DNA of 64,000 nucleotides from a virus (taxonomy: Duplodnaviria; Heunggongvirae; Uroviricota; Caudoviricetes). Positions 6,839 to 59,097 of the stretch are shown piece by piece (the first letter of the stretch is position 1; each line of letters starts with the position of its first letter). The DNA is taken from the IMG/VR virus record IMGVR_UViG_3300047445_000122. The stretch is one strand, 5' to 3'. Below the pieces are notes generated by a model. The model saw only the letters and a program-made list of their open reading frames with translations, ran no database searches and was not told the DNA's origin. Made by a program: the position numbers and the translations under genes.

Positions 6839-7306
6839 TTACATCAACCAGAGGAGAGGTTGAGCCTTGCCCATCAACTTCTCGTTGAAATCCTCATCCC
6901 AAGGGAACTTGCCCTTGTCGTCAGTCAGAACCATTTGAAGGTAGACAGGAGCCGATTCACCCTTGTTGTAGTAGTATTCCAGACCCTGAACAGCCCAGTC
7001 ATCGACTTGCTTGGTGGTCAGCTTCTTGAACACCACCGGGAACCTTCCAACGTTCAGGGAGGAGGAACCGTCAGTGAACTTGCGACCGGACTTGATCTCA
7101 TCCACAGCTTTGTGAATCAGGTAGTGACCGATTTCCTGACGGACACCCATGACGATGATTTCTGGGTGGTCAAGGGTATCTTTCAGACCGACAGTGTAGC
7201 AGAACGGTGGAGTCATGGCGTCAGGATCAGCGAAGACGCCCATCACAGCAAAGCCATAGTCTGGGTTCTTGATGTCACTCTTGATCTTTTGTTGGATGAT
7301 GTCCAT
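6839..7306 (-). CDS. DUF4262-like protein (155 aa)
   Basis: Size and the CYTVGL / HPEIIV pattern are reminiscent of the DUF4262 family. Start reassigned to ATG 7306 (AAAGGA SD). Low certainty. Confidence 0.3.
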   Translation of the reverse strand: MDIIQQKIKSDIKNPDYGFAVMGVFADPDAMTPPFCYTVGLKDTLDHPEIIVMGVRQEIGHYLIHKAVDEIKSGRKFTDGSSSLNVGRFPVVFKKLTTKQVDDWAVQGLEYYYNKGESAPVYLQMVLTDDKGKFPWDEDFNEKLMGKAQPLLWLM

Positions 7307-7375
7307 TCTGTAGTTCCTTTCAGTTTGATCTCGCGGTATTGCTCGACCTGAAAAGATTATACTTGGTAACTTGAT

Positions 7376-7424
7376 AAAAGAAAAGCCCCTGAGACGAATC
7401 TCAGGGGCTTTTTCGTTACTTCGT
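7376..7424. terminator. bidirectional rho-independent terminator
   Basis: AAAAGCCCCTGAGA-cgaa-TCTCAGGGGCTTTTT. Confidence 0.7.
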
Positions 7425-7712
7425 GGCTCTGTTGTACGTATCCCACGATTCCTTGTGGCGTTCATACTCACGCACTACGTCCCGGAACCAGGCGGTCATC
7501 TCATTCACAGGGAAGCGACTGGCTTGACCCTCGTTGTACTGGATCCCCGTTCCCGGCGATTCCCAGACCCGCTTGTGGTACTTGAACTTGAAGCCAAAAA
7601 TCTTGACTTCCTTCTGAACATACAAGCGGACAACAGCCTTGGAGTATTCAGCAACCGTCCAGCGACATTGATAGTCACCCAGACGGCCTTTGATCAACAT
7701 GGAGTTGCGCAT
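7416..7712 (-). CDS. hypothetical protein (98 aa)
   Basis: Complete ORF, coupled to the upstream ACP-fusion gene, followed by the terminator at 7376..7424. Confidence 0.4.
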   Translation of the reverse strand: MRNSMLIKGRLGDYQCRWTVAEYSKAVVRLYVQKEVKIFGFKFKYHKRVWESPGTGIQYNEGQASRFPVNEMTAWFRDVVREYERHKESWDTYNRATK

Positions 7713-9070
7713 TACTTGGTGTTGTACAGTTCGCGGCCATAGGCCTGGCTGACATCACCCAGCACGATGTACTTACAGCAACGGCACTTGTCGAAGTTGT
7801 AGTCAGTCGGTACGGACACGATGTCGCGTGGATCGACCTTGACTTCAACCAGGCGGTCGCCGCCGCTGGAGCTGGAGAAGTGACGGACATAGCCCGGAGC
7901 ACAGATGTGCAGACCGTGGGAGCAAGTCACGTTGTCGCGGTCATCGACCTTGGAACGTGGCATCTCGACAGTCAGGCCTGGGTTGTTCTTCATCGTACCA
8001 GTGTACTTGTCCAGGTAGTTGTTGCGTACAACCTTCAGGGCGATGATGTCGCCGTCGCCGTCGATGCGGAGGCCAGTCTTGGTCACGAAGTTGAACAGGT
8101 TCTTGTTGACGCGGAAGGAATGGGATTCTTCCAGCTTCTCGAAGAAGCGGCTGAACTTCTCCAGACCCTTTTCATCGGAGTCTTCCAGGCAGCGCATCAT
8201 CACGCCAGCCAGTTCGGAGTCGATGCGCTTGCCATCGAACGTCACACCCTGGGCGGTCACGACCATCTTGCCACTGGACCAGCGCGACAGAGCACCAACC
8301 ATGTCGATCAGATCGTACAGCAGTTGCAGGTCTTTCTTGTAAATCTGGTTGTTCTGGACGTTGGCCACAATCGCGCTGATCTTGTCATAGTTCTTGTGGG
8401 TCTTGTCAATCTGCAGTGGAGTGCTGTCGCGCACCACAGTCAGAACTTGAGGCAGGACGATGGCCTGGAACGGCACCAGAACATCAGGCTCGGTGTCATC
8501 CGCAGCCAGGGAGTTGGTAGGCAGTTCATCGACCGCCTTCATGATGAACAGAACAGCATCCTTGACGGTCTTGATCTTCTCAACATCTTCATCTGGAATC
8601 TCGATGTCGAACTCATCTTCCAGAGCCATAGCCAGCTCAACGGTGTCCAGGGAATCAGCGCCCAGGTCATCGATGAAGTGGGATTCTGGGGATACATCAC
8701 CGGCATCAACGCCCAGTTGATCAATGATGACTTCGATGGTCTTGTTCAGGATGGTGGTGTTCAGCTCAGGCTCCGGGGCCGGAACGATCTTGGCTTCAGC
8801 CGGGATCGCCTTGGACTTGCGTGGCTTGGCTTCCTTCTTCGCCTTCGGTTTGCGCACACGCTTCGGCGCGGCTGCTTTCTTGGCCTTCTTGGTGGTCTTG
8901 GCCTCAACCTGTTCTTCGGTTGGCTTCGGTGCGTTCTCTGCTACAGCCCAGCGAGCCAGGGTGGAGCGGGAGATACCAACCTTGTCAGCCGCTTCCGACT
9001 TGCTCAGACCATTGGCCTGGTAGTTCTGGAAGCTGATAACTGCTTGGATTTGTTGACTCGTCAGAATCAT
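7712..9070 (-). CDS. multidomain protein: N-terminal HTH, Lys-rich linker, acyl-carrier-protein (ACP) domain, and a C-terminal 250-aa domain of unknown function
   Basis: Residues about 115..185 ([59 protein letters not shown]) match bacterial AcpP almost motif-for-motif, including the DSL phosphopantetheine-attachment serine. N-terminal [20 protein letters not shown] helix-turn-helix. Strong SD before ATG 9070. Confidence 0.7.
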
Positions 9071-9145
9071 GTAGTTATTCCTTTCAGTGGATAATACAGG
9101 GAATTATAGCGTCAAGTGGGTTCAACCAAGAACCCACTTACTTGA

Positions 9146-12058
9146 TCAAGGCATCAAGATTGACTTGGCTTTCTCAAGCGCCGCTTCAAACTCCAGGGTG
9201 TCCCGGTCAAAGAAGCTGCCAAACAACACGGCCTTGTACTGTTCCTTGATGTATTGCTCACGGAACTTCTTGAAGTTGCCCTTGGCATGCTCATACAACT
9301 CATTGTGGTAGAAGCGGCCTGGTTTGGATGGCTCGAAGCCGGGAGCGAAGGTGGTGCGCTTCGCAAAGTCCATCGCCAGACGACTTGCCTCAACCAGAGA
9401 CAGCTTCACGCCGTAGTGTTGGGCGTATCGATAGCCGAAGGCGATCACAGGCGGAATGTCATATTGATCGTGATGATACAGAGCACCGCCATTCTTCAGC
9501 GAGTACAATGCCATCTTCAAGTGCTTGTTGATCCGGGACGGCGGGAGGTTCGTGGACTCCTGGAAATTCAGGAACTTGGACGACCACACTTTCGTGTAAT
9601 AATCCTTCTTCCGCAGGGCGATGTCTGTACCTGGGCTGTCCTTGTAGGCATTGGCCAAAGTGAACGCCTTGTAACGGCGCTGGAATTGACGGGAGCCCAC
9701 TTGGTTGTAACCAACGCTGTCAAGGAAGTCGGACAGAGGTGTGATATTCAACTCATCCTTGTACTTGTCAACGTTCTTGAAGTTCATCGGAGTGATGCGG
9801 TACAGGTTGAAGTTCTCTTCAGCCAGGGAGGCCACTGTGACCAACAATCCCATGTTCAGGCTCATTGGGAACTCGCGTGTCAACTCCATGTCCAGGTAGG
9901 ACTTCTCAGACTTGCCGTCATTGTACAACAAGAAGCCTGGTTCAACCTTGTCTGTCGAAGCCGGGATGGCTGAGAAGGAACTGCGCTGGTTGTTATTGAG
10001 ATTGGCCGGGGATTGCATACCATACTTCATGGAGCGTTTCTCAATCTCCAGGATGCGCATACCGCGCACAGAGACCTTCAGAGGATCGCGCTCAGCCTTC
10101 GGTACAGTCACAGTGCTCAGGCGGATGATCTTGGGTTTGTACTCCAGGCTCTGGCTCCAAGCCTCATAGAAGGCAAAGCCGTCTTCAGTGTCGGAACGCA
10201 CCAAAACCACACGGCAACGCAGCTCCCATGGATTGAGGGTCAAGCGGTCTTGAACATCAGCAATACCGCGTTGCTCACCCAGGGTGTTGCGCATGATCCA
10301 AGTGATGCGCCTTGACATCTCATTGTCGGTATCAACATACACAACAATGTCGTTGTGGCGGAAGTGTTGGTCATTCACCGGAACTTGAGACAGGTCGGTG
10401 TAGCTACCGTAACTTGGGCTGACAGTGCCATGGCTTGGAACCACAGAGTGGGTCGCCCGGAGGACAGGCAGGTATTGCTTGACATTGCGCTTGAAGAGAA
10501 CGCGCTGGGCAGTCATGTAGCCGCCCTGTTCCCAGTCACGAACTTGTTCAGGTTCCCCAGACAAGGCAGCGAAGTCAGGTTCCCAACCAGCAGCCACCAT
10601 AGCACCAATTTGGTCATTGCCACGAGCAGTGTACTCGATAGAGCGGTTGGTGGTGACGACTTGAGTGATGCCGTTGACAACCACATCCATGGTATCGGTC
10701 TCAACTGAAACATCAACAGCCACGTGTTTGGTTTCCTCAACCTCACGCTCCATGTGAGGGAATGTGATCTTGACGTCCTGGGTGAGGCGGCGCGGCTGGG
10801 ATGCGTTCAACTGCAGCTTGCCGTTGACTGGCAAGCCCTTGGAGTTGATCACAGGCGGGAGGTTGCAACCCATGTCCATTTCCCACTCGACCTCCTTCAT
10901 GGCAAAGATCATCTCACTGTTCACGCCATGGTTGGTCCAATCGCAGTAGTTCAACACACGTAACAGACTGGCGGACAGAGTCTGGATGCTGGTGTCGTCA
11001 GTGACCGCTCGAACGTGGTTCTGTAAGGTTGGGATGAACTCCTCAACCAACTTCTCCAGGCGCAGGAGGATGTTGTAACAAGTCTGAGCGTCATACTCCA
11101 GCGCTTCCCGGCTCGGCGGAATCTCAAGGTCACCGATCCCGAAGAACAGAGCAAACACTGAGTCCTTGGCGGATGGGGAGAACTTCTCAACTTGGCGGAT
11201 GACCTCACCAATGCGACCGGACAGACCTTCCACATACACGCCGCTTTCCTTCAGGGTGTTGATGTAGTCATCTTCCAAGTCGATGTTGATCAACTGGTTC
11301 ATGTCCAGAGGGTAGGACACGCCGCCCATGTTGGCCAGGAATTGACCATAATAGCGAGACAGACCCTGGGAGTGTACATACTTCCAGTCGGTGCCTTCAA
11401 ACTTGATGTCGCCGTAGTTCTCCCAGATGTCAGCGGAGTTTTGACCCACAACGATTGGGCGCGGCTCGAAGAAGAACAGCTGCGCCGCGACAGAGCGCGC
11501 ATAGGTCTCGTAACGCCCAACGCTGGACGGAACCTTGTACGTGATGCCGTTTGGCTCCTCCGTTGGCTTAGAGCCAATGTGAACCAGCTTCGGGATGCTA
11601 CCCTTGGCACGGAAGAATGAGAAGCTGTGTAGCTGGCCCTCGAACCGGCTCTCAATGATGTAGGAGTCAGTGACGGCGAACGGCGACTTGGAACCCAGAC
11701 CATAGGCACCAATGGACATGTTCTCGTTCTCTTTCGTGGACTCAAACAGGTTGCCCAGATAGCGCTTGACGTTCTCGATGGACAGGCCGGTGCCGTTGTC
11801 GCTGATGATCAGCTCGTGAGTCATGTGGCTCGGCAGATGGATGTGCCATTGACCAGGGGCCGTACCAGTGAGGCGTGCGAGGTCATGCATTGCGTCGCGG
11901 GCATTCGCGCCTAGCTCACGCACCACCGCATCTTCCTTCTTGGTATACAGTTTGTCAATCATCAGGGAGAACGACTTGCCGTTCATCTTGGCGCCCATGT
12001 CACTGACGCCCCCGATGTTGCTAACTGTTACGACTGATTCTTGTTCATGTGTGATCAT
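9146..12058 (-). CDS. large GHKL/Bergerat-fold ATPase-domain protein (970 aa), function unknown
   Basis: N-terminal N-box ELGANARDAMHD, G1 box ISDNGTGL and G2 box GAYGLGSKSPFAV (Hsp90/GyrB/MutL-like). No toprim or topoisomerase active-site motifs were found in the remaining 800 aa. Confidence 0.5.
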   Translation of the reverse strand: MITHEQESVVTVSNIGGVSDMGAKMNGKSFSLMIDKLYTKKEDAVVRELGANARDAMHDLARLTGTAPGQWHIHLPSHMTHELIISDNGTGLSIENVKRYLGNLFESTKENENMSIGAYGLGSKSPFAVTDSYIIESRFEGQLHSFSFFRAKGSIPKLVHIGSKPTEEPNGITYKVPSSVGRYETYARSVAAQLFFFEPRPIVVGQNSADIWENYGDIKFEGTDWKYVHSQGLSRYYGQFLANMGGVSYPLDMNQLINIDLEDDYINTLKESGVYVEGLSGRIGEVIRQVEKFSPSAKDSVFALFFGIGDLEIPPSREALEYDAQTCYNILLRLEKLVEEFIPTLQNHVRAVTDDTSIQTLSASLLRVLNYCDWTNHGVNSEMIFAMKEVEWEMDMGCNLPPVINSKGLPVNGKLQLNASQPRRLTQDVKITFPHMEREVEETKHVAVDVSVETDTMDVVVNGITQVVTTNRSIEYTARGNDQIGAMVAAGWEPDFAALSGEPEQVRDWEQGGYMTAQRVLFKRNVKQYLPVLRATHSVVPSHGTVSPSYGSYTDLSQVPVNDQHFRHNDIVVYVDTDNEMSRRITWIMRNTLGEQRGIADVQDRLTLNPWELRCRVVLVRSDTEDGFAFYEAWSQSLEYKPKIIRLSTVTVPKAERDPLKVSVRGMRILEIEKRSMKYGMQSPANLNNNQRSSFSAIPASTDKVEPGFLLYNDGKSEKSYLDMELTREFPMSLNMGLLVTVASLAEENFNLYRITPMNFKNVDKYKDELNITPLSDFLDSVGYNQVGSRQFQRRYKAFTLANAYKDSPGTDIALRKKDYYTKVWSSKFLNFQESTNLPPSRINKHLKMALYSLKNGGALYHHDQYDIPPVIAFGYRYAQHYGVKLSLVEASRLAMDFAKRTTFAPGFEPSKPGRFYHNELYEHAKGNFKKFREQYIKEQYKAVLFGSFFDRDTLEFEAALEKAKSILMP

Positions 12059-12074
12059 TCTTGATTATTGTTCC

Positions 12075-12353
12075 TTATTGGTTAATGACCAGGATCGCCA
12101 GATTGACGCAGCCCGGATACTTCAACTCAGATTGTTTGGTGGGATGGTAGATCCAATTATCCACCCGCCCTTCAGTTTTCTCTACCTGGGACAGCTCGAA
12201 GGTCACACAAGCCCCGGTAAGCTGCGAGGTGAGGCTAATTTTGGTGTCCTGCGGGTCTTCCTTCGTGAAGTCGGTCATCTCAGACGCCTCAACAACATAA
12301 CGGCCAGTGGTCTTGCTAAAGTGAAACAGTTCGGAGGCAAAGATGAGATTCAT
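12075..12353 (-). CDS. hypothetical protein (92 aa)
   Basis: Complete ORF. Minus-strand -10 TATAAT at 12394..12399 upstream. Confidence 0.4.
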   Translation of the reverse strand: MNLIFASELFHFSKTTGRYVVEASEMTDFTKEDPQDTKISLTSQLTGACVTFELSQVEKTEGRVDNWIYHPTKQSELKYPGCVNLAILVINQ

Positions 12354-12429
12354 GAGACCAGTATTCCCTAAGTGGTGCGGTTACGATAGGGAAATTATAC
12401 CGGCCAGAGGAGGCGTTGAGTTAGCCATT

Positions 12430-12580
12430 GATATTGGGTCGCCACACAGTGGGTCAACCCAATCAATATTCCAACCGTAAGTGCTTGATTCTACAGGTTG
12501 AGAAAATTGACTTTATTGGAATTGCTGTTGTGAATTCCGAGACAAGAAAAAGCCCCTGGTGGGAACCAGGGGCATGTTGT
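12430..12580. repeat. intergenic repeat element, copy B
   Basis: CCGTAAGTGCTTGATTCTACAGG ... TTGACTT ... GGAATT-GCTGTTGTG-AATTCC hairpin ... AAAAAGCCCCTGG..CCAGGGGC terminator ... ATGTTGTTA. Confidence 0.65.
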
Positions 12581-12858
12581 TACTTGAGAATCGCCAGACA
12601 GCTTTCTCGGTCTTTGTTCAGAGAGTCAGTCCACTGAACCACTGCCATGTCGCGGATCGAAGTGACCAGGGCTTCGACATCCCAATTGGTCAGATCGGCT
12701 TCGATGAACATGACCTTGCCATCATCCAGACGCCAGTTACACACCAGGTCAACCTTCAGTGTCTTCGGGCCGTTGTCTACATCGACACGCATCCAAGACA
12801 CGAACCAACCGGCGTTGATGGTGGCCAGGAGCTCATCAACAGTATACAGACGGCGCAT
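12580..12858 (-). CDS. hypothetical protein (92 aa)
   Basis: Complete ORF with an ATGA overlap to the TAXI gene. Followed by repeat-element copy B with its terminator. Confidence 0.4.
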   Translation of the reverse strand: MRRLYTVDELLATINAGWFVSWMRVDVDNGPKTLKVDLVCNWRLDDGKVMFIEADLTNWDVEALVTSIRDMAVVQWTDSLNKDRESCLAILK

Positions 12859-13841
12859 TACTTCTTGGCCTTAGCTGCTGGGCCGTTGAAGCGCGGCAGA
12901 TCGGATACCGTGGCGTCAACGTTCTTGATCTCATTCCAGCCCGGTTCATAGCGGCCTTCCTTCAGTTCCTCCAGGTTGGAGGCGATGAGTTGCTTCAGGC
13001 GGGCAACTTCTTGAGCCTTCTGGCCAGTGAACGGGCGGGTTACCAGGACGTTTTGGATGGCCAGGGCTGGGATGTTGTAGGCGCCAATGTTCTTGTAGTT
13101 GAACGGCTTGACGTTGTATGGACTACCAATCGGAGCATCGAACGGGATCAGGGTCAGACCGCTGTTCGCATCCAGAGCCTTGATCGAGGCAACCGGCCAA
13201 CCGGCGACAGTGAAGGCAGCTGCGACTTTGCCGGTGCGCACCAGTTCAAATGCAGCTTCATCAGTCTTCACCGAAGTGAAGCGCATGCCGTAGCCCAGTT
13301 GCTTGTTCAGAACAGCGCCCAGGAGCTCAGCACTGCCCACGGCGGCGACGTTCTGGCCGCGCAGGGAGCTGAAGGAGGTCATGCGGACGTTCTTCAGGTC
13401 GCCGTCCATGAAGCCATACTTCTTCTCGCCACGAACGTTGTAGCCGTTGGCCAGGGCCACAATGTGCAGGTAGTTGTTGTTCAGCGGCATGACCACTTGC
13501 AGGGAGGCGATGTTGTCGTCACCTTGACCCATGGTCTTCAGGGTATCGACTTGAGCCAGGCCCAGATCAGCTTGCTTCTCGCTCAGATCAGTCAGGTTGT
13601 CAAGACCGCCCTTGGTGGTCTTTTCGCAGATCGCCATGTTGTTGCCGACAACCTTCTTGATGTCGCGGTACATGGCTGCGTAGCCTTTGTTGGAAGCGCC
13701 GGTGGCGATGGTCAGACCGTCGCAATCAGCTGCTGGAGCGCCGTCCATCTTGGCTGCGTGAGCCGGGAGGGACATAGTTACAGCAGCCAAGATGCCGAGA
13801 GCGCTGATGCTGGACAGGGCGATGAGTTTGGACAGTTTCAC
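12858..13841 (-). CDS. TAXI-family TRAP-transporter periplasmic solute-binding protein (secreted)
   Basis: Signal peptide MKLSKLIALSSISALGILAAVTMSLPAHA. Segments GLTIATGASNKGYAAMY, KGGLDNLTDLSEKQADLGLAQVD, YLHIVALANGY and GKVAAAFTVAGWP align to the TAXI consensus remembered from bacterial proteins. Likely GTG start with AAGGAG SD. Confidence 0.7.
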   Translation of the reverse strand: MKLSKLIALSSISALGILAAVTMSLPAHAAKMDGAPAADCDGLTIATGASNKGYAAMYRDIKKVVGNNMAICEKTTKGGLDNLTDLSEKQADLGLAQVDTLKTMGQGDDNIASLQVVMPLNNNYLHIVALANGYNVRGEKKYGFMDGDLKNVRMTSFSSLRGQNVAAVGSAELLGAVLNKQLGYGMRFTSVKTDEAAFELVRTGKVAAAFTVAGWPVASIKALDANSGLTLIPFDAPIGSPYNVKPFNYKNIGAYNIPALAIQNVLVTRPFTGQKAQEVARLKQLIASNLEELKEGRYEPGWNEIKNVDATVSDLPRFNGPAAKAKK

Positions 13842-13853
13842 GGTATAGCTCCT

Positions 13854-14002
13854 TACAGGTTGAAGTTGGTTGCAGGCGGATGATCCTGCGGAGTTGTTAC
13901 AACAGGGGTCTCGCCTTCCGGCGTTGCTGGCTTGGAGGTGAACACATAGAGCGCACCCAGGACAGCCAGCATCAACACGATACCAATGACGGTGAGTTTC
14001 AT
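13854..14002 (-). CDS. small single-pass membrane protein (49 aa), not in the ORF track
   Basis: ATG 14002 with AAGGA 7 nt upstream. Sequence MKLTVIGIVLMLAVLGALYVFTSK followed by a Pro/Thr-rich tail. Sits 12 nt upstream of the TAXI gene. Confidence 0.35.
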
Positions 14003-53934: not shown

Positions 53935-56900
53935 ATGTCACTTCAAAAAACCGACCTCAATGTCGCCCCGTTCTATGATGATTACGATGAGTCCAAAGGA
54001 TTCCATCGTGTGCTGTTCCGCCCAACCAAGTCCGTTCAGGCCCGTGAACTGACTCAGGCTCAAACCATCCTCCAAGAGCAAATCAACCGCTTCGGTCGTC
54101 ACTTCTTCCAAGAAGGCTCTGTTGTCGTTCCTGGTGGCATCAACGCCATCCCTGCCAAGGACACCATCGCAGTATCCCTGGGTGGCAACATTGATCCAAA
54201 CGTCCTGACCCTCAACAAAGACAAGCTGTACATTGTGTCCACCTCCTCTGGTGTGGAAGCCCACATGGTCAAGTTTGTTCCTGCTGCTAATGGCGACCCA
54301 ACTGCCTTCGCACTCGACTACCGCAAGACCGCAACTGACGGCGTGACTCGCACATTCCAAGCTGGAGAGACCTGCAACTTGGTGATCCGCGACGACAGCG
54401 GCGATACCATCGTCATCAACATGGTGGTGAACTCTGTCCAGAAGGGCACGTATGTTGCTGTTCTGCCTGGTGTGTACTTCGTGCGTGGCCATATGGTGCG
54501 TTGCGAGTCCCAAGACATCGTCGCCACACCATTCCGCAACGATCAGAACGTGCATGTGGGCTTCAAGATCAATGAGTCCATCATCAGCGAGACCCAAGAC
54601 GCCTCCCTGTTGTCGAACGCCCTGGGCGCTCCCAACTACAAGGCTCCGGGCGCTGCTCGCCTGAAGATCGAACTGACCCTGGCGTCCTACATTGGCGACT
54701 ACAACGACAACTCCTTCGTGGAGATTGTGACGTTTGCCAACGGTGAGCTGCAAAACAAGGTTGTCTCGACTGACTACAGCTACCTGATGAACAACATCGC
54801 GCAGCGTCAGTATGAGACCAACGGCAACTTCACTGTCGCGCCGATCCCGCTGAACATCTATGACCACATGCGGAATGAAGACTTCAAAGACGGTCTGTAC
54901 ACCCCTGCTCTGGGCGGCGACGCAACCAAGCTGGTGTATCGTCTGGGTCGTGGTATTGCCTACACCAACGGCTTCCGTTCTGAAATCCAGAACTACTACG
55001 ACATTGTAGCAGACAAGGCCATCGATACCAACACCCTGCGCAACGCAGTGTTGCCAACCTCCTTCGGCTCCTACTTCCTGTGTACGACTGCGACGGCTGT
55101 ATCTCTGCCACCACTCGACCTGAAGAAGCGTGTGAACCTGTTGGACGGCTCCAACGCTGTGATCGGTACTTGCCTGGTGCGTTCCGTGAAGTACAATGGC
55201 TATGACGCCATCATCGCCGGTAACACCATCCGCCTGTATGTGATGGACGTGCGGTTCAACACTGGCAAGAGCCTGGCTGACTTGGCTTCTGTGAAGTATC
55301 AAGACTCATCCAACAACTTCTCCGCTCCTGTGTATGGCAAGCGTGTGTACGACAGCACTGTGGACTCCATGCTCTTCAAGCTGCCGTATGATGCTGTGAA
55401 GTCTCTCTCGACCCAATCAGGCATCAACACCTCATACAGCGTCGTGCGTTCCTACGACATCACCCTGAACGGCTCTGGTGTTGGCTCTGTGTCTCTCCCA
55501 GCGAATGAGTATTTCGTGGCTCTGAACGGCTTCGATTATGCTGCTGCTCTGACCGGTTCCGGGACTCCAGGCACTGCGTTCGGTACAGACAAGCTCGCCC
55601 TCGGCGGTACGGGTGGGAATAAGACACTGACAGTGAATGTTGGTGCGTCGTACAGCGGTCAGGTCGTTCGCGTCATCGCGCCAGTCTATAAGGCCGTTAC
55701 GGGTCACAAGACGAAGACCCTCACCAGCCGTACCCAAACCATCGCCTTCGCAAACCAGAGCTCAGCAATCCTCGACCGTTGTGATGTGTACAAGCTCGAC
55801 AGCGTGATCTTGGTGAACCCTGATCTGACTGAAGTTGACGTGTCCAATCAATTCGGTATCAACTCAGGCAGCAAGCCGAACTGGTATGAGAACGGGAGCC
55901 TGTACAAGCTCGACAGCACGAAGGTGACTGGCAACTACCGTGTGACCTATGAGTATTTCAACCACTCCAGCGGCGACTACTTCACTGTGGACTCGTATGG
56001 TGGTATGCTGCGTGAAGACATCCCGCTGACGTCTGACACATTTGACAAGACCGTCGTGAGCTTGGCCGACTGTCTGGACTTCCGCCCTCTGCGCGATGCC
56101 TCGACAGCTACTGGCTCTGTGATTGGTGACTTCACCTCCGCTTCTTGGCTGGGTGACCTCATTGACCCGAACGACAGCGTCAACTATGACGTCACGTACT
56201 ACACCAACCGCATGGACTTGGTGTTTGCGGCTCCTGATGGCAGCTTCAGTGCTATGCGTGGTATCCCTGGCGACAACCCAAGCCCACCTCCTGTTCCGAA
56301 CGATTGTATGGCTTTGTACCAAGTGTACATTCCGGCCTACACTGTGGACGTGTCTAAGGTGCGTCTGTTCTCCTTCGACAACAAGCGCTACACGATGCGC
56401 GACATTGGCAAGCTGGAAGGTCGCATCGGCAACCTGGAATACTACACCTCTCTGAACCTCTTGGAGAACAAGGTGGAGCGTACCCAGGTGTTGGATCAGA
56501 ACGGTCTGAACCGTTTCAAGAACGGCTTCAGCGCCGACAACTTCCTGAGCACGACTCTGGGCGATGTGACTGATCCTCTGTGGGCTGCGTCCTATGACTT
56601 GAAGAACGGTCTGTTGCTGGGTTCCTACAAGGAAAGCCCTGCCGACATGATCTACAAGTCCGGTACCAATCACAAAATCGGCCGTTCTGCTGTGATGGAC
56701 TTCACGACCTCCGTTGCGATCAAACAGCCTCTGGCCACGCAAACTATCAACGTCAACCCATATGCTGTGTATACCTGGTCTGGCTCTGTGGAACTGTTCC
56801 CGGCGTCTGACTTCTGGAAAGACACTGTGTACTTGCCACCGATCACCCGCTCAGCTAATGGCCGTGTGACTTCCTCTGGCAATTCGTCTGGTCCAAGCGC

Positions 56901-59097
56901 TTCTGCGATCCAGGACTACAACGATCAGTATCTGTACCTCAAGGCGACTCCTGAGACTATGCAGAAAATCTGGGGCAGCGACTCCTCGATTCAAACCCCT
57001 GGCGCTCTGTTGACTTGGCAAACGCAATCTGGTACAGTGGTGACGATTCCTAACACCACCATCCCTGGTTCAAGTGTTGGCGGTCTCCCGGTTCCGACCT
57101 GGGCCATCACACCATACACCTTGGCAGACGTACCTGGCTTCACTCCCGGCACCACACTGGCTGGCTTCCCGCTGCCTCCTGCTGGTATCCCGATCTGGTC
57201 TCCATCCGCACCTACACAGGGCAACTCTGTACGTTGGGGCGTGACTGGTAGCCATGTGGAAACGACTGTCACCAATCAGTACTTCGATGACTTGATCGCA
57301 ACCGCAGTGATCCCATGGATGCGTAGTATCCAAATCACAGCCCGCCTCAAAGGCTTCCGCCCATTCACCAAGTTGTTTGCATTCTTCAACGGTATCAGTG
57401 TTGACGCTTACATCCAGCAGACGAAACCGGCGTTGGGAACCCTGGGTGCGAACATTGTGGTTGATGATACTGGTGCAGCTGAAGCAGTCTTCACGATCCC
57501 AAGCGATGTCAACATGCGCTTCCCTGTAGGCGATGCGACTCTGCGGTTCACTGATGACCCTGTGAACGGCGCGACCAACGCTCAATCCTTCACCTCTGGC
57601 GAGACTGTGTTCAAGTCCGGTGGTACTCTGGAAACCCGCCAGCAGACAACCGTGACCACTGTCACTCAAACCGTTGTGGAAGACTGGGGCTGGGTATCTC
57701 CTCCGCGAGACCCTGTTGCTCAAACCTTCTATGTGTCTGACTCTGGTGGTATCTGGGTTCCGAAGATTGACGTTGCATTCTCCACGAAGGCCAAGAAGCT
57801 GCCGATCACTCTGCAAGTGCGTTCTGTGACGGCTGGTCTCCCAACCAACGTTGTCGCTGCTGGCGGTCAAGTTATTCTGGACCCGTCCCAAGTGAATGTG
57901 TCTGCTGACGGCTCCGTGATGACCTCGTTCGTGTTTGATGACCCGATCTACCTGGCTGGCAAGACTGAATACGCCATCGTGCTCCTGGCCGACACCCAAG
58001 AGTACAACGTGTTCATCGCTACCATGGGTCAACGTGTGATTGGCAAGAACTTGAATGTGGCGGAGCAGCCTAACATCGGCGTGTTCCTGACCTCATCCAA
58101 CGCTTCAACCTGGTCTCCCGATCAACTGAGCGATCTGACCTTTGCTGTTCACAAGTGCGTGTTCGACACCAACACGACGACTCAAGTTGTCTGGGAGTGC
58201 TTCCGCCCTATGGCCCAGATCACAACTCTGCATCCGATCACTACCACTTCCGGTAGCAACATTGTGAAGTTGAATGTGCGTTCCCACTCTCTGAAGGCGG
58301 GTGACACGTTCCCGATCTACGTTGCTGAGGACGGTGCTGGTATCCCATCTACAGAGTTCATCGGCACGAAAACAGTTTTGTCCTCCGGTCTTGACTGGGT
58401 GACTTTCGCTGTAACAACCAATGCCAATGCATCAACTAACGTTGGTGGTGTGGTCAGCTTGACGGCGAACTATCCTGTGACTGAGTTCCGTCCTGATATC
58501 ATCCAGAACACTCTGCCAGGTACCACAGTTGCTTGGGAATATCAATATGTGTCTCAAGCCAGCCGCGCAACCTCTGCTTGGACGTTGTTCACGAACACAA
58601 ACGAAACCAATGGTCTTCCTTCTGAAGGCGTCATCCGCCAAGATGGTGACTTTAAGATTCGCGCCACGTTCAAGACGACTGATCCAAACCTGACCCCTCA
58701 GGTGAAGTTGAACGGTATGGGTGTCCAGCTGATTGGTCGCCGTCTCACAAACGACGCAACCAACCCAGCATTCAACTATGTGACGAAGGCTGTGAAGTTT
58801 GATAATGCCAACACCTCCATGCGCGCCTACATCGGTGTGAACCTCCCTGGTTCTACCAACATGAAAGCGTACTACAAGCTGTTGGCAACCGGCTCCGATG
58901 ATCTGAGCAAGGTAGCATGGACTGAGGTTCTTCCTCAGACCTCAATCATCAACCAACAGAAGGGCTTCGTTGAGTATGAGTACCGTGTGAACTCAACCAC
59001 CCCGTTCGTTGGCTACAAGATGATGATTTGCTTCTTTGGTCCAGACCCTGTCGATTGCCCAATCGTTCAGGACTTCCGCTCGATAGCGTTGGCATGA
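53935..59097 (+). CDS. very large virion structural protein (1720 aa)
   Basis: Uninterrupted 5.2-kb ORF in the tail/baseplate module immediately upstream of the gp13-like gene. Confidence 0.5.
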   Translation: MSLQKTDLNVAPFYDDYDESKGFHRVLFRPTKSVQARELTQAQTILQEQINRFGRHFFQEGSVVVPGGINAIPAKDTIAVSLGGNIDPNVLTLNKDKLYIVSTSSGVEAHMVKFVPAANGDPTAFALDYRKTATDGVTRTFQAGETCNLVIRDDSGDTIVINMVVNSVQKGTYVAVLPGVYFVRGHMVRCESQDIVATPFRNDQNVHVGFKINESIISETQDASLLSNALGAPNYKAPGAARLKIELTLASYIGDYNDNSFVEIVTFANGELQNKVVSTDYSYLMNNIAQRQYETNGNFTVAPIPLNIYDHMRNEDFKDGLYTPALGGDATKLVYRLGRGIAYTNGFRSEIQNYYDIVADKAIDTNTLRNAVLPTSFGSYFLCTTATAVSLPPLDLKKRVNLLDGSNAVIGTCLVRSVKYNGYDAIIAGNTIRLYVMDVRFNTGKSLADLASVKYQDSSNNFSAPVYGKRVYDSTVDSMLFKLPYDAVKSLSTQSGINTSYSVVRSYDITLNGSGVGSVSLPANEYFVALNGFDYAAALTGSGTPGTAFGTDKLALGGTGGNKTLTVNVGASYSGQVVRVIAPVYKAVTGHKTKTLTSRTQTIAFANQSSAILDRCDVYKLDSVILVNPDLTEVDVSNQFGINSGSKPNWYENGSLYKLDSTKVTGNYRVTYEYFNHSSGDYFTVDSYGGMLREDIPLTSDTFDKTVVSLADCLDFRPLRDASTATGSVIGDFTSASWLGDLIDPNDSVNYDVTYYTNRMDLVFAAPDGSFSAMRGIPGDNPSPPPVPNDCMALYQVYIPAYTVDVSKVRLFSFDNKRYTMRDIGKLEGRIGNLEYYTSLNLLENKVERTQVLDQNGLNRFKNGFSADNFLSTTLGDVTDPLWAASYDLKNGLLLGSYKESPADMIYKSGTNHKIGRSAVMDFTTSVAIKQPLATQTINVNPYAVYTWSGSVELFPASDFWKDTVYLPPITRSANGRVTSSGNSSGPSASAIQDYNDQYLYLKATPETMQKIWGSDSSIQTPGALLTWQTQSGTVVTIPNTTIPGSSVGGLPVPTWAITPYTLADVPGFTPGTTLAGFPLPPAGIPIWSPSAPTQGNSVRWGVTGSHVETTVTNQYFDDLIATAVIPWMRSIQITARLKGFRPFTKLFAFFNGISVDAYIQQTKPALGTLGANIVVDDTGAAEAVFTIPSDVNMRFPVGDATLRFTDDPVNGATNAQSFTSGETVFKSGGTLETRQQTTVTTVTQTVVEDWGWVSPPRDPVAQTFYVSDSGGIWVPKIDVAFSTKAKKLPITLQVRSVTAGLPTNVVAAGGQVILDPSQVNVSADGSVMTSFVFDDPIYLAGKTEYAIVLLADTQEYNVFIATMGQRVIGKNLNVAEQPNIGVFLTSSNASTWSPDQLSDLTFAVHKCVFDTNTTTQVVWECFRPMAQITTLHPITTTSGSNIVKLNVRSHSLKAGDTFPIYVAEDGAGIPSTEFIGTKTVLSSGLDWVTFAVTTNANASTNVGGVVSLTANYPVTEFRPDIIQNTLPGTTVAWEYQYVSQASRATSAWTLFTNTNETNGLPSEGVIRQDGDFKIRATFKTTDPNLTPQVKLNGMGVQLIGRRLTNDATNPAFNYVTKAVKFDNANTSMRAYIGVNLPGSTNMKAYYKLLATGSDDLSKVAWTEVLPQTSIINQQKGFVEYEYRVNSTTPFVGYKMMICFFGPDPVDCPIVQDFRSIALA

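Follow-up and report, generated by a model that had tools for sequence, protein, structure and literature searches.

T4-like phages carry, besides the topoisomerase gp39, a second GHKL protein, rIIA, known from the older literature as a peripheral membrane protein in T4, where the gene for its partner rIIB lies directly downstream. T4 requires the pair to grow on hosts with exclusion of the RexAB type. An earlier note on the DNA studied here, a window of 64,000 nucleotides from a Caudoviricetes virus, overlooked rIIA and proposed that a 970-residue protein with an N-terminal GHKL (Bergerat) ATPase module could be a highly diverged topoisomerase, an Hsp90-like chaperone or the ATPase of a novel system. 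Judged by sequence comparison the protein is none of these, but an orthologue of T4 rIIA with an rIIB partner downstream. The explanation as a whole, comprising the rIIA orthologue and its rIIB, the GHKL module, a diverged C-terminus and a proposed anti-exclusion mechanism, is given a probability of about 0.93.

Identity of the gene and layout of the locus

The locus comprises, in the direction of transcription:

12552..12573, minus strand: intrinsic-terminator-like hairpin (9-bp stem, 7 GC pairs), then TTTTTCTTGT
12075..12353, minus strand: 92-aa ORF upstream of rIIA, without a family match (ORF list; PHROG and Pfam scans)
9146..12058, minus strand: rIIA gene, 970 aa plus stop (ORF list, translation, PHROG rIIA and T4 rIIA BLASTP matches)
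7712..9070, minus strand: rIIB partner gene, 452 aa, consisting of HTH, linker, ACP and rIIB domain (PHROG, Pfam, BLASTP)

Translation of 9146-12058 on the minus strand gives 970 residues followed by a stop, and a plus-strand reading of the same interval was rejected as its translation is riddled with stops. The open reading frame is real. Its M1-I2 start (MITH…) is invariant in all 10 homologues of full length, which makes 970 aa the correct length of this rIIA; the public JGI annotation (P0001, 950 aa) misses the first 20 codons.

Several independent searches agree on what the gene encodes. PHROG rIIA family 612 matches aa 1-363 with E=8.6e-70, and five further rIIA PHROGs, among them 3661, 30832, 2979 and 24904, match as well. 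BLASTP aligns T4 rIIA over aa 1-340 (E=1e-22), and hhalign of the profile of the protein's metagenomic clade against a profile of T4 and diverse rIIA proteins gives a probability of 100% and E=7e-79 over aa 1-363 (326 columns). tblastn leads to 2855 phage records, the best of which fall under genes annotated rIIA, and a megablast search of positions 7000-14000 against 50,697 phage records returned no near-identical known phage. Since the similarity to rIIA reaches past the generic GHKL core, through the second domain and a PSRE motif, a merely generic GHKL similarity is excluded. The adjoining gene is matched by PHROG rIIB families 609 (5.6e-65) and 3803, and T4 rIIB aligns by BLASTP to its aa 212-444 with 37% identity (E=7e-44). 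The T4 gene order is thus kept, with rIIB directly downstream of rIIA on the same strand, and with such strong rIIA matches and an rIIB beside them the suggestion of a novel system falls away. Two homologous contigs and Vibrio phage EniLVp02 (loci L002, L003 and L005) likewise have rIIA followed by rIIB, downstream of DnaB.

The stop of rIIA is separated from the start of rIIB by 75 nt without an intervening T-run terminator, in keeping with the earlier note's placement of the protein in one operon with the ACP-fusion protein, which is the rIIB described here. The 92-residue ORF ends 17 nt ahead of the rIIA start and is probably the first gene in the transcription unit of rIIA and rIIB, while the terminator-like hairpin at 12552..12573, upstream of all three genes, would close the preceding unit. 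A sigma-70 promoter scan gave nothing above shuffled sequences. The sequence TATAATTYCCCT, picked out by eye ahead of the small ORF and similar to one in front of rIIB, was rejected as a shared promoter motif: it has only 2 matches in the window, and the copy before rIIB requires 2 mismatches.

The N-terminal ATPase module

The conserved part of the protein contains the following elements:

10970..12058, minus strand: conserved rIIA N-terminal module, aa 1-363 (hhalign; Foldseek)
11882..11917, minus strand: Bergerat motif I (N-box) ELGANARDAMHD, aa 48-59, with E48, N52 and D55 (sequence; invariant in both alignments)
11783..11806, minus strand: motif II (G1 box) ISDNGTGL, aa 85-92, with D87, G89 and G91 (sequence; alignments)
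11672..11710, minus strand: motif III (G2 box) GAYGLGSKSPFAV, aa 117-129 (sequence; alignments)
11540..11551, minus strand: candidate motif IV NGIT, aa 170-173 (conservation; inferred assignment)
11090..11119, minus strand: rIIA signature PPSREALEYD, aa 314-323 (conservation; aligns to 'APSREALSLD' of T4)

The module opens with a GHKL ATPase domain (~aa 1-200), continues with a transducer-like second domain and takes in the beginning of a helical linker. At 25.4 bits the Pfam HATPase_c_3 match is just above the cut-off of 25 (E=1.6e-5), and with invariant motif residues the GHKL ATPase assignment made earlier is right. All three of the boxes that had been called canonical are present: E48, N52, D55, D87, G89, G91, G117, G120 and G122 do not vary among 11 clade members, and the equivalents of the key Bergerat residues are likewise invariant across an alignment of 61 diverse rIIA proteins. 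Residues 107-131, spanning motif III, have low pLDDT values in the model, as expected of an ATP-lid. In the candidate motif IV the clade alignment shows no variation at N170 and G171 and at least 90% conservation of T173, and G172 (T4 numbering) is invariant across rIIA proteins. Within the signature P314, P315, S316, R317, E318, E321 and Y322 are all invariant in the clade alignment, and the arginine of the PSRE motif in T4, R278, is invariant in 61/61 diverse rIIA proteins. R317 is put forward as a candidate γ-phosphate sensor.

Foldseek matches the N-terminal module to the N and M domains of Hsp90/TRAP1, to MutL N40 and to ParE ATPase fragments, and each of these families has to be weighed. 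A type II topoisomerase ATPase subunit similar to gp39 or GyrB, even if highly diverged, would have the GHKL fold, the transducer-like second domain and the Foldseek likeness to ParE/GyrB ATPase fragments (E~1e-4) that we observe. This reading was rejected and is extremely improbable, as the GyrB/ParE likeness is confined to the ATPase part, Pfam detects no Toprim domain in the protein and tblastn with T4 gp39 finds nothing within the window. An ATP-driven chaperone of the Hsp90 kind could explain why GRP94, Hsp90 and TRAP1 head the PDB fold matches, with ~460-480 columns aligned, and why phmmer matches the HtpG N domain (E=7.7e-4), yet such an identity has next to no chance of being correct. 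The likeness is limited to the common GHKL plus middle/transducer architecture, matched by MutL and ParE too, the HtpG match covers the N domain only, TM-scores are about 0.2, and neither a Pfam HSP90 hit nor the Hsp90 C-terminal dimerization domain was found. As regards membership in the MutL family, a search for the DNA_mis_repair transducer domain and the MutL C-terminal domain found neither.

The C-terminal region and the rIIB partner

Two further elements bear on what distinguishes this locus:

9149..10969, minus strand: divergent rIIA C-terminal region, aa 364-970
8525..8761, minus strand: acyl-carrier-protein domain in rIIB, aa 104-182, DSL serine present (Pfam)

The models, moderate in confidence with mean pLDDT of 69-73, divide the C-terminal region into a β-rich part (aa ~390-560), α/β parts (aa ~570-830) and a helical tail (aa ~840-968). 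In the full-length hhalign comparison the C-terminal 600 residues do not align to other rIIA proteins, and an alignment of the C-terminal part alone to rIIA is weak (probability 59%, E=9e-5). In PHROG scans none of the 11 C-terminal segments had a match below E=0.026, a sequence search of the PDB matched only Hsp90 N domains, and a profile search of the region against 1.84 billion representative proteins returned 7 hits, all from the small metagenomic clade itself. Within the clade the region has invariant residues of its own, FPH 433-435, RG 665-666, YxD 721-723 and YRxxP 753-757. No enzyme fold was detected in the region, and rIIA contains no transmembrane candidates (best 19-residue Kyte-Doolittle window 1.0).

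When the C-terminal region is modeled alone its best viral (BFVD) matches, the top 7, are T4-like rIIA proteins, with E values of 6e-6 to 5e-4 and TM-scores of only 0.13-0.19. Because of these matches, and in agreement with PMC7824862, where rIIA is described as "GHKL + highly variable C-terminal domain", the modeling supports aa 364-970 as a strongly diverged, enlarged rIIA C-terminal region. The earlier claim that topoisomerase, MutL or Hsp90 motifs are lacking downstream is borne out over the remaining ~600 residues; no toprim, MutL-C or Hsp90-C domain turned up in this part, and the rIIA identity of its best fold matches has to be read with TM-scores below 0.2 in mind.

The unusual feature of the locus is the partner rIIB, with its N-terminal HTH and intact acyl-carrier-protein domain (Pfam HTH_3 1.4e-5 and PP-binding 6e-14); the latter shares 56% identity with AcpP of E. 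coli. Most rIIB partners in the long-rIIA clade bear an intact ACP. In Vibrio phage EniLVp02 the rIIB aligns across the ACP region, but an ACP-rIIB fusion was rejected for this phage as another residue stands in place of the serine ('ADPLDEL') and Pfam reports no PP-binding domain; the region appears to be a remnant at best.

These observations raise the question of whether the protein, although derived from rIIA, has acquired a new activity through an enlarged clade-specific C-terminus and, in place of a classical anti-Rex role, acts with the ACP-bearing rIIB on lipid/acyl metabolism or the membrane. The C-terminal region is traceable by sequence only inside the small clade, where it has its own invariant residues and mostly intact ACP partners, as such an activity would suggest. 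We nevertheless regard it as very unlikely. Two clade members, P0005 and P0003, are paired by contig with rIIB proteins without ACP (P0126 and P0128), and ACP-rIIB fusions also occur beside ordinary ~800-aa rIIAs (P0129/P0027 and P0132/P0064), so that the idea of the ACP fusion being coupled to a long rIIA C-terminus was rejected, each being found without the other. The C-terminal fold, moreover, still matches ordinary rIIA best and shows no sign of an enzyme.

Proposed mechanism and comparison with known systems

Our preferred reading remains that of an rIIA-rIIB pair with an anti-exclusion role. From T4 genetics and the behavior of GHKL proteins we infer that rIIA would bind and hydrolyze ATP, with nucleotide-dependent N-terminal dimerization probable, and that R317 in the PSRE loop may play the part of the transducer Lys/Arg, as in GyrB, MutL and Hsp90. 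The conformational change would be relayed to the fast-evolving C-terminal region, which may contact rIIB, a host target or both. As a pair, rIIA and rIIB would form a non-essential early module that blocks abortive-infection systems of the RexAB type, prophage- or host-encoded, from killing the infected cell; the fast evolution of the rIIA C-terminus fits an arms-race interface. It is also conceivable, if unlikely, that the rII module has been rebuilt in this metagenomic lineage, the enlarged rIIA C-terminus and an rIIB with phosphopantetheinylated ACP acting jointly, so that the acylated carrier would tether the complex to the membrane or intercept a host lipid/ACP-dependent defense or metabolic step. 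Such a module, if real, would offer the first biochemical handle on rII protein action.

For annotation, a 970-residue "hypothetical protein" becomes rIIA and its neighbor rIIB, and an apparent orphan GHKL ATPase is struck from the candidates for novel systems. With this locus rIIA gains a deep-branching clade of long-form proteins; the supposedly unalignable rIIA C-terminus is predicted by the models to keep a common fold over very distant phages, and the ACP-bearing rIIB provides a concrete lead on rII mechanism.

Hsp90/HtpG, MutL N40 and GyrB/ParE 43K share with the studied rIIA a Bergerat fold and a second domain, an architecture that makes nucleotide-driven dimerization reasonable as a working model; rIIA nonetheless stands outside their sequence families and is without a toprim, a MutL endonuclease/dimerization domain or an Hsp90 C domain. 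Full-length homology is found in the metagenomic long-rIIA clade (P0002-P0011, 945-1000 aa, 30-39% identity), which has the same C-terminal region and keeps the DnaB … rIIA-rIIB synteny, with some rIIB partners lacking ACP. The closest isolated phage is Ralstonia phage RSP15 (NC_030948), with an rIIA 37.9% identical over aa 1-338 and, directly downstream, an rIIB 43.7% identical to ours; its rIIA has no match past aa 338, and the ACP part found no match in its rIIB. T4 rIIA (NP_049616.1, 725 aa) is homologous over the N-terminal ~340 residues (26% identity), with all of the Bergerat motifs, the PSREAL motif and a similar N-terminus (MIITTEKE in T4, MITHEQE here). The studied phage belongs to a different myovirus lineage of ~165 kb and about 53% GC, its rIIA is 245 residues longer than that of T4, and its rIIB has HTH and ACP domains extra to T4 rIIB. 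The C-terminal 600 residues lie beyond ordinary sequence alignment to T4, and the modeled C-terminal folds of the two rIIA proteins appear to be distantly related.

Identity of the 970-residue protein

The minus strand of 9146-12058 is open for 970 codons plus a stop in both the ORF list and the translation; a plus-strand reading of the same interval was rejected for its many stops. All 10 of the aligned full-length homologues begin with Met-Ile, as does T4 rIIA ('MIITTEKE'), and AAGGAA lies 12 nt 5' of the start codon. The JGI public call of the identical protein, P0001, is 950 aa long and begins at Met21. Because M1-I2 is kept in T4 rIIA as well as in every homologue, the 970-aa form is strongly favored, so that the public call is probably too short, with the true start 20 codons upstream at window position 12058.

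An earlier note had recognized an N-terminal GHKL ATPase in this protein from three motifs, all of which are found in the translation of the minus-strand ORF:

aa 48-59, Bergerat motif I (N-box), ELGANARDAMHD
aa 85-92, G1 box, ISDNGTGL
aa 117-129, G2 box, GAYGLGSKSPFAV

That domain call is correct, with a narrow pass for Pfam HATPase_c_3 (25.4 bits for a curated cut-off of 25, E=1.6e-5) and with the conserved nucleotide-binding residues intact, both the invariant ones (E48, N52, D55, D87, G89, G91, G117, G120, G122) and NG(I)T at aa 170-173. In the model of the N-terminal module confidence is low for the ATP-lid segment at aa 107-131 and for the PSRE loop at aa 314-319, both of which are probably mobile.

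On the basis of sequence comparison the protein is rIIA. It matches phrog_612 'RIIA lysis inhibitor' over aa 1-363 (E=8.6e-70) and five further rIIA PHROGs, while a tblastn search of 50,697 phage genomes matched 2855 records, the best under genes annotated rIIA and the nearest isolated phage being Ralstonia phage RSP15 (37.9% identity, aa 1-338). T4 rIIA itself (NP_049616.1) is 26% identical over aa 1-340 by BLASTP (E=1e-22), and a profile of the ORF with ten full-length relatives aligns with one of T4 rIIA and 60 diverse rIIAs over aa 1-363 with a probability of 100% (E=7e-79). The rIIA match passes beyond the generic ATP-binding core, covers the second domain and ends at PPSREALEYD (aa 314-323), for which the T4 counterpart is 'APSREALSLD'; the Arg of the PSRE motif is invariant in 61/61 diverse rIIAs.

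The note had offered a diverged topoisomerase, an Hsp90-like chaperone or an ATPase of a novel system, and none of these holds. T4 gp39 as a tblastn query has no match in the window, where T4 rIIA finds the ORF (5e-21). Apart from the ATPase fold that they share, defining features of topoisomerase II, Hsp90 and MutL were looked for in the ORF and not found. Four features that define rIIA were found, namely similarity specific to the family, GHKL motifs that are intact, the PSRE signature and a neighboring rIIB gene. The gene is an ordinary rIIA, a kind of phage protein already described, rather than part of a novel system.

C-terminal region and clade

The note had left the remaining ~600 residues unassigned, and sequence searches give very little there: Pfam has nothing at E up to 1, PHROGs match none of the 11 C-terminal segments, and the full-length profile alignment stops at aa 363. 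An HMM of the C-terminal region retrieved only 7 matches among 1.84 billion representative proteins, all from the same clade. Predicted structures are of moderate confidence (mean pLDDT 69 full-length, 73 C-terminal region only). Foldseek hits of the full-length model to Hsp90/GRP94/TRAP1 (N and middle domains), MutL N40 and ParE/GyrB ATPase fragments (E 1e-6 to 1e-4) reflect, as modelled, the GHKL domain and a second transducer-like domain. Among predicted viral structures (BFVD) the C-terminal-only model has 7 matches at E < 1e-3, all rIIAs of T4-like or other large phages (among them those of Klebsiella phage Marfa, Pectobacterium phage Arno18, Shigella phage JK55, Vibrio phage KVP40) or unnamed proteins of rIIA length; their alignments span ~400-700 columns, with TM-scores below 0.2 and models of moderate confidence. 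A C-terminal-only profile comparison gives a weak co-linear match of aa ~630-790 to T4 rIIA aa ~453-583 (probability 59%, E=9e-5), a stretch that contains the clade-invariant 'LS..V.PK', 'PGF.VF' and 'YRLTP'. [quoted passage not shown]

The protein joins a known family as part of a small clade of long-form rIIAs, which branches deeply and whose members are to date metagenomic (~11 clusters, 945-1000 aa, 30-39% identity to the ORF). The phage genome is ~165-kb and myovirus-like, and encodes a UvsX-like recombinase, gp6-like baseplate wedge, DnaB, RNA ligase and thymidylate synthase; no close relative was found among sequenced isolates. Elsewhere, 53935-59097 (+) is a 1720-aa ORF matching PHROG 358/877 (function unassigned, E=0), a very large and conserved protein that is probably of virion or tail-fibre-like type.

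The rIIB partner and its surroundings

Adjacent features, all on the minus strand, are

12552-12573 (-), strong terminator-like hairpin, 5' of the 92-aa ORF, rIIA and rIIB
12075-12353 (-), small ORF, 92 aa, between the hairpin and rIIA
7712-9070 (-), rIIB partner, 452 aa, starting 75 nt 3' of rIIA
8525-8761 (-), acyl-carrier-protein (ACP) domain in rIIB, aa 104-182, Pfam PP-binding 6e-14

The product of the 452-aa gene matches rIIB PHROGs (5.6e-65), and its aa 212-444 align with T4 rIIB at 37% identity (E=7e-44). The order rIIA then rIIB is that of T4; it also follows DnaB helicase on the contigs with homologues P0007 and P0004, and rIIB lies directly 3' of rIIA in Vibrio phage EniLVp02 (Straboviridae). 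Since a strong hairpin precedes the unit and no T-run terminator was found between rIIA and rIIB, the 92-aa ORF, rIIA and rIIB are likely co-transcribed, in keeping with the operon shared with the ACP-fusion protein that the note had proposed. Right after the rIIA stop, 9118-9143 (-) holds a perfect 10-bp hairpin without a T-run (AAGTGGGTTC-TTGG-TTGAACCCACTT region), followed by a 'TTGACGCTATAAT'-like sequence before the rIIB start. The element could serve in RNA processing or stability, or act as an internal rIIB promoter.

This rIIB is unusual in its four parts, an N-terminal HTH (aa ~15-52), a Lys/Ala/Pro-rich linker, the complete ACP and, last, the rIIB domain. The 'DSL' serine of the ACP is intact, and the domain shares 56% identity with E. 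coli AcpP. About 14 metagenomic protein clusters carry ACP+rIIB fusions, with no strict coupling to the long rIIA form: 2 contigs pair a long rIIA with an ACP-less rIIB, and in some cases an ~800-aa rIIA accompanies ACP-rIIB. Among the 15 top-ranked tblastn records listed for isolated phages none has an intact ACP in rIIB; the sole one reaching the ACP region, EniLVp02, carries a degenerate remnant (Ser -> Pro). Of all that the locus shows, only this fusion might justify more work.

In phrog_609 'RIIB' (profile length 1055) the rIIA N-terminus aligns at positions 21-247 and rIIB at 758-1049, and some phages thus seem to encode rIIA-rIIB as a single fused polypeptide, which would be a separate line of support for rIIA and rIIB forming a physical complex. 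Neighbors at 12858-13841 (-) and 6839-7471 (-) include a 327-aa NMT1_3-like (periplasmic-binding-protein-like) protein and a DUF4262 protein; a TerD-domain protein lies nearby on homologous contigs, and in one of these, L002, rIIB is directly followed by a gene for a 1742-aa protein that has an ADP-ribosyltransferase toxin domain. These genes point to a variable neighborhood of accessory or counter-defence type around rIIAB.

Proposed mode of action

By analogy with other GHKL ATPases, ATP binding would shut the lid and favor N-terminal dimerization, a basic residue of the second domain, for which R317 of PSRE is the candidate, would complete the active site, and the conformational change would be passed on to the C-terminal region. 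In this role R317 would be analogous to GyrB Lys337, MutL Lys307 and Hsp90 Arg380. No transmembrane segment shows up in rIIA in a simple hydropathy scan, so that if the protein associates with a membrane it would do so peripherally. T4 rIIA and rIIB together allow growth on hosts with the prophage-encoded RexAB abortive-infection system (PMC10312443; PMC11077077). The present pair would do likewise, and from T4 biology it is plausible that the rapidly evolving C-terminal region forms the interface with rIIB and/or a host target.
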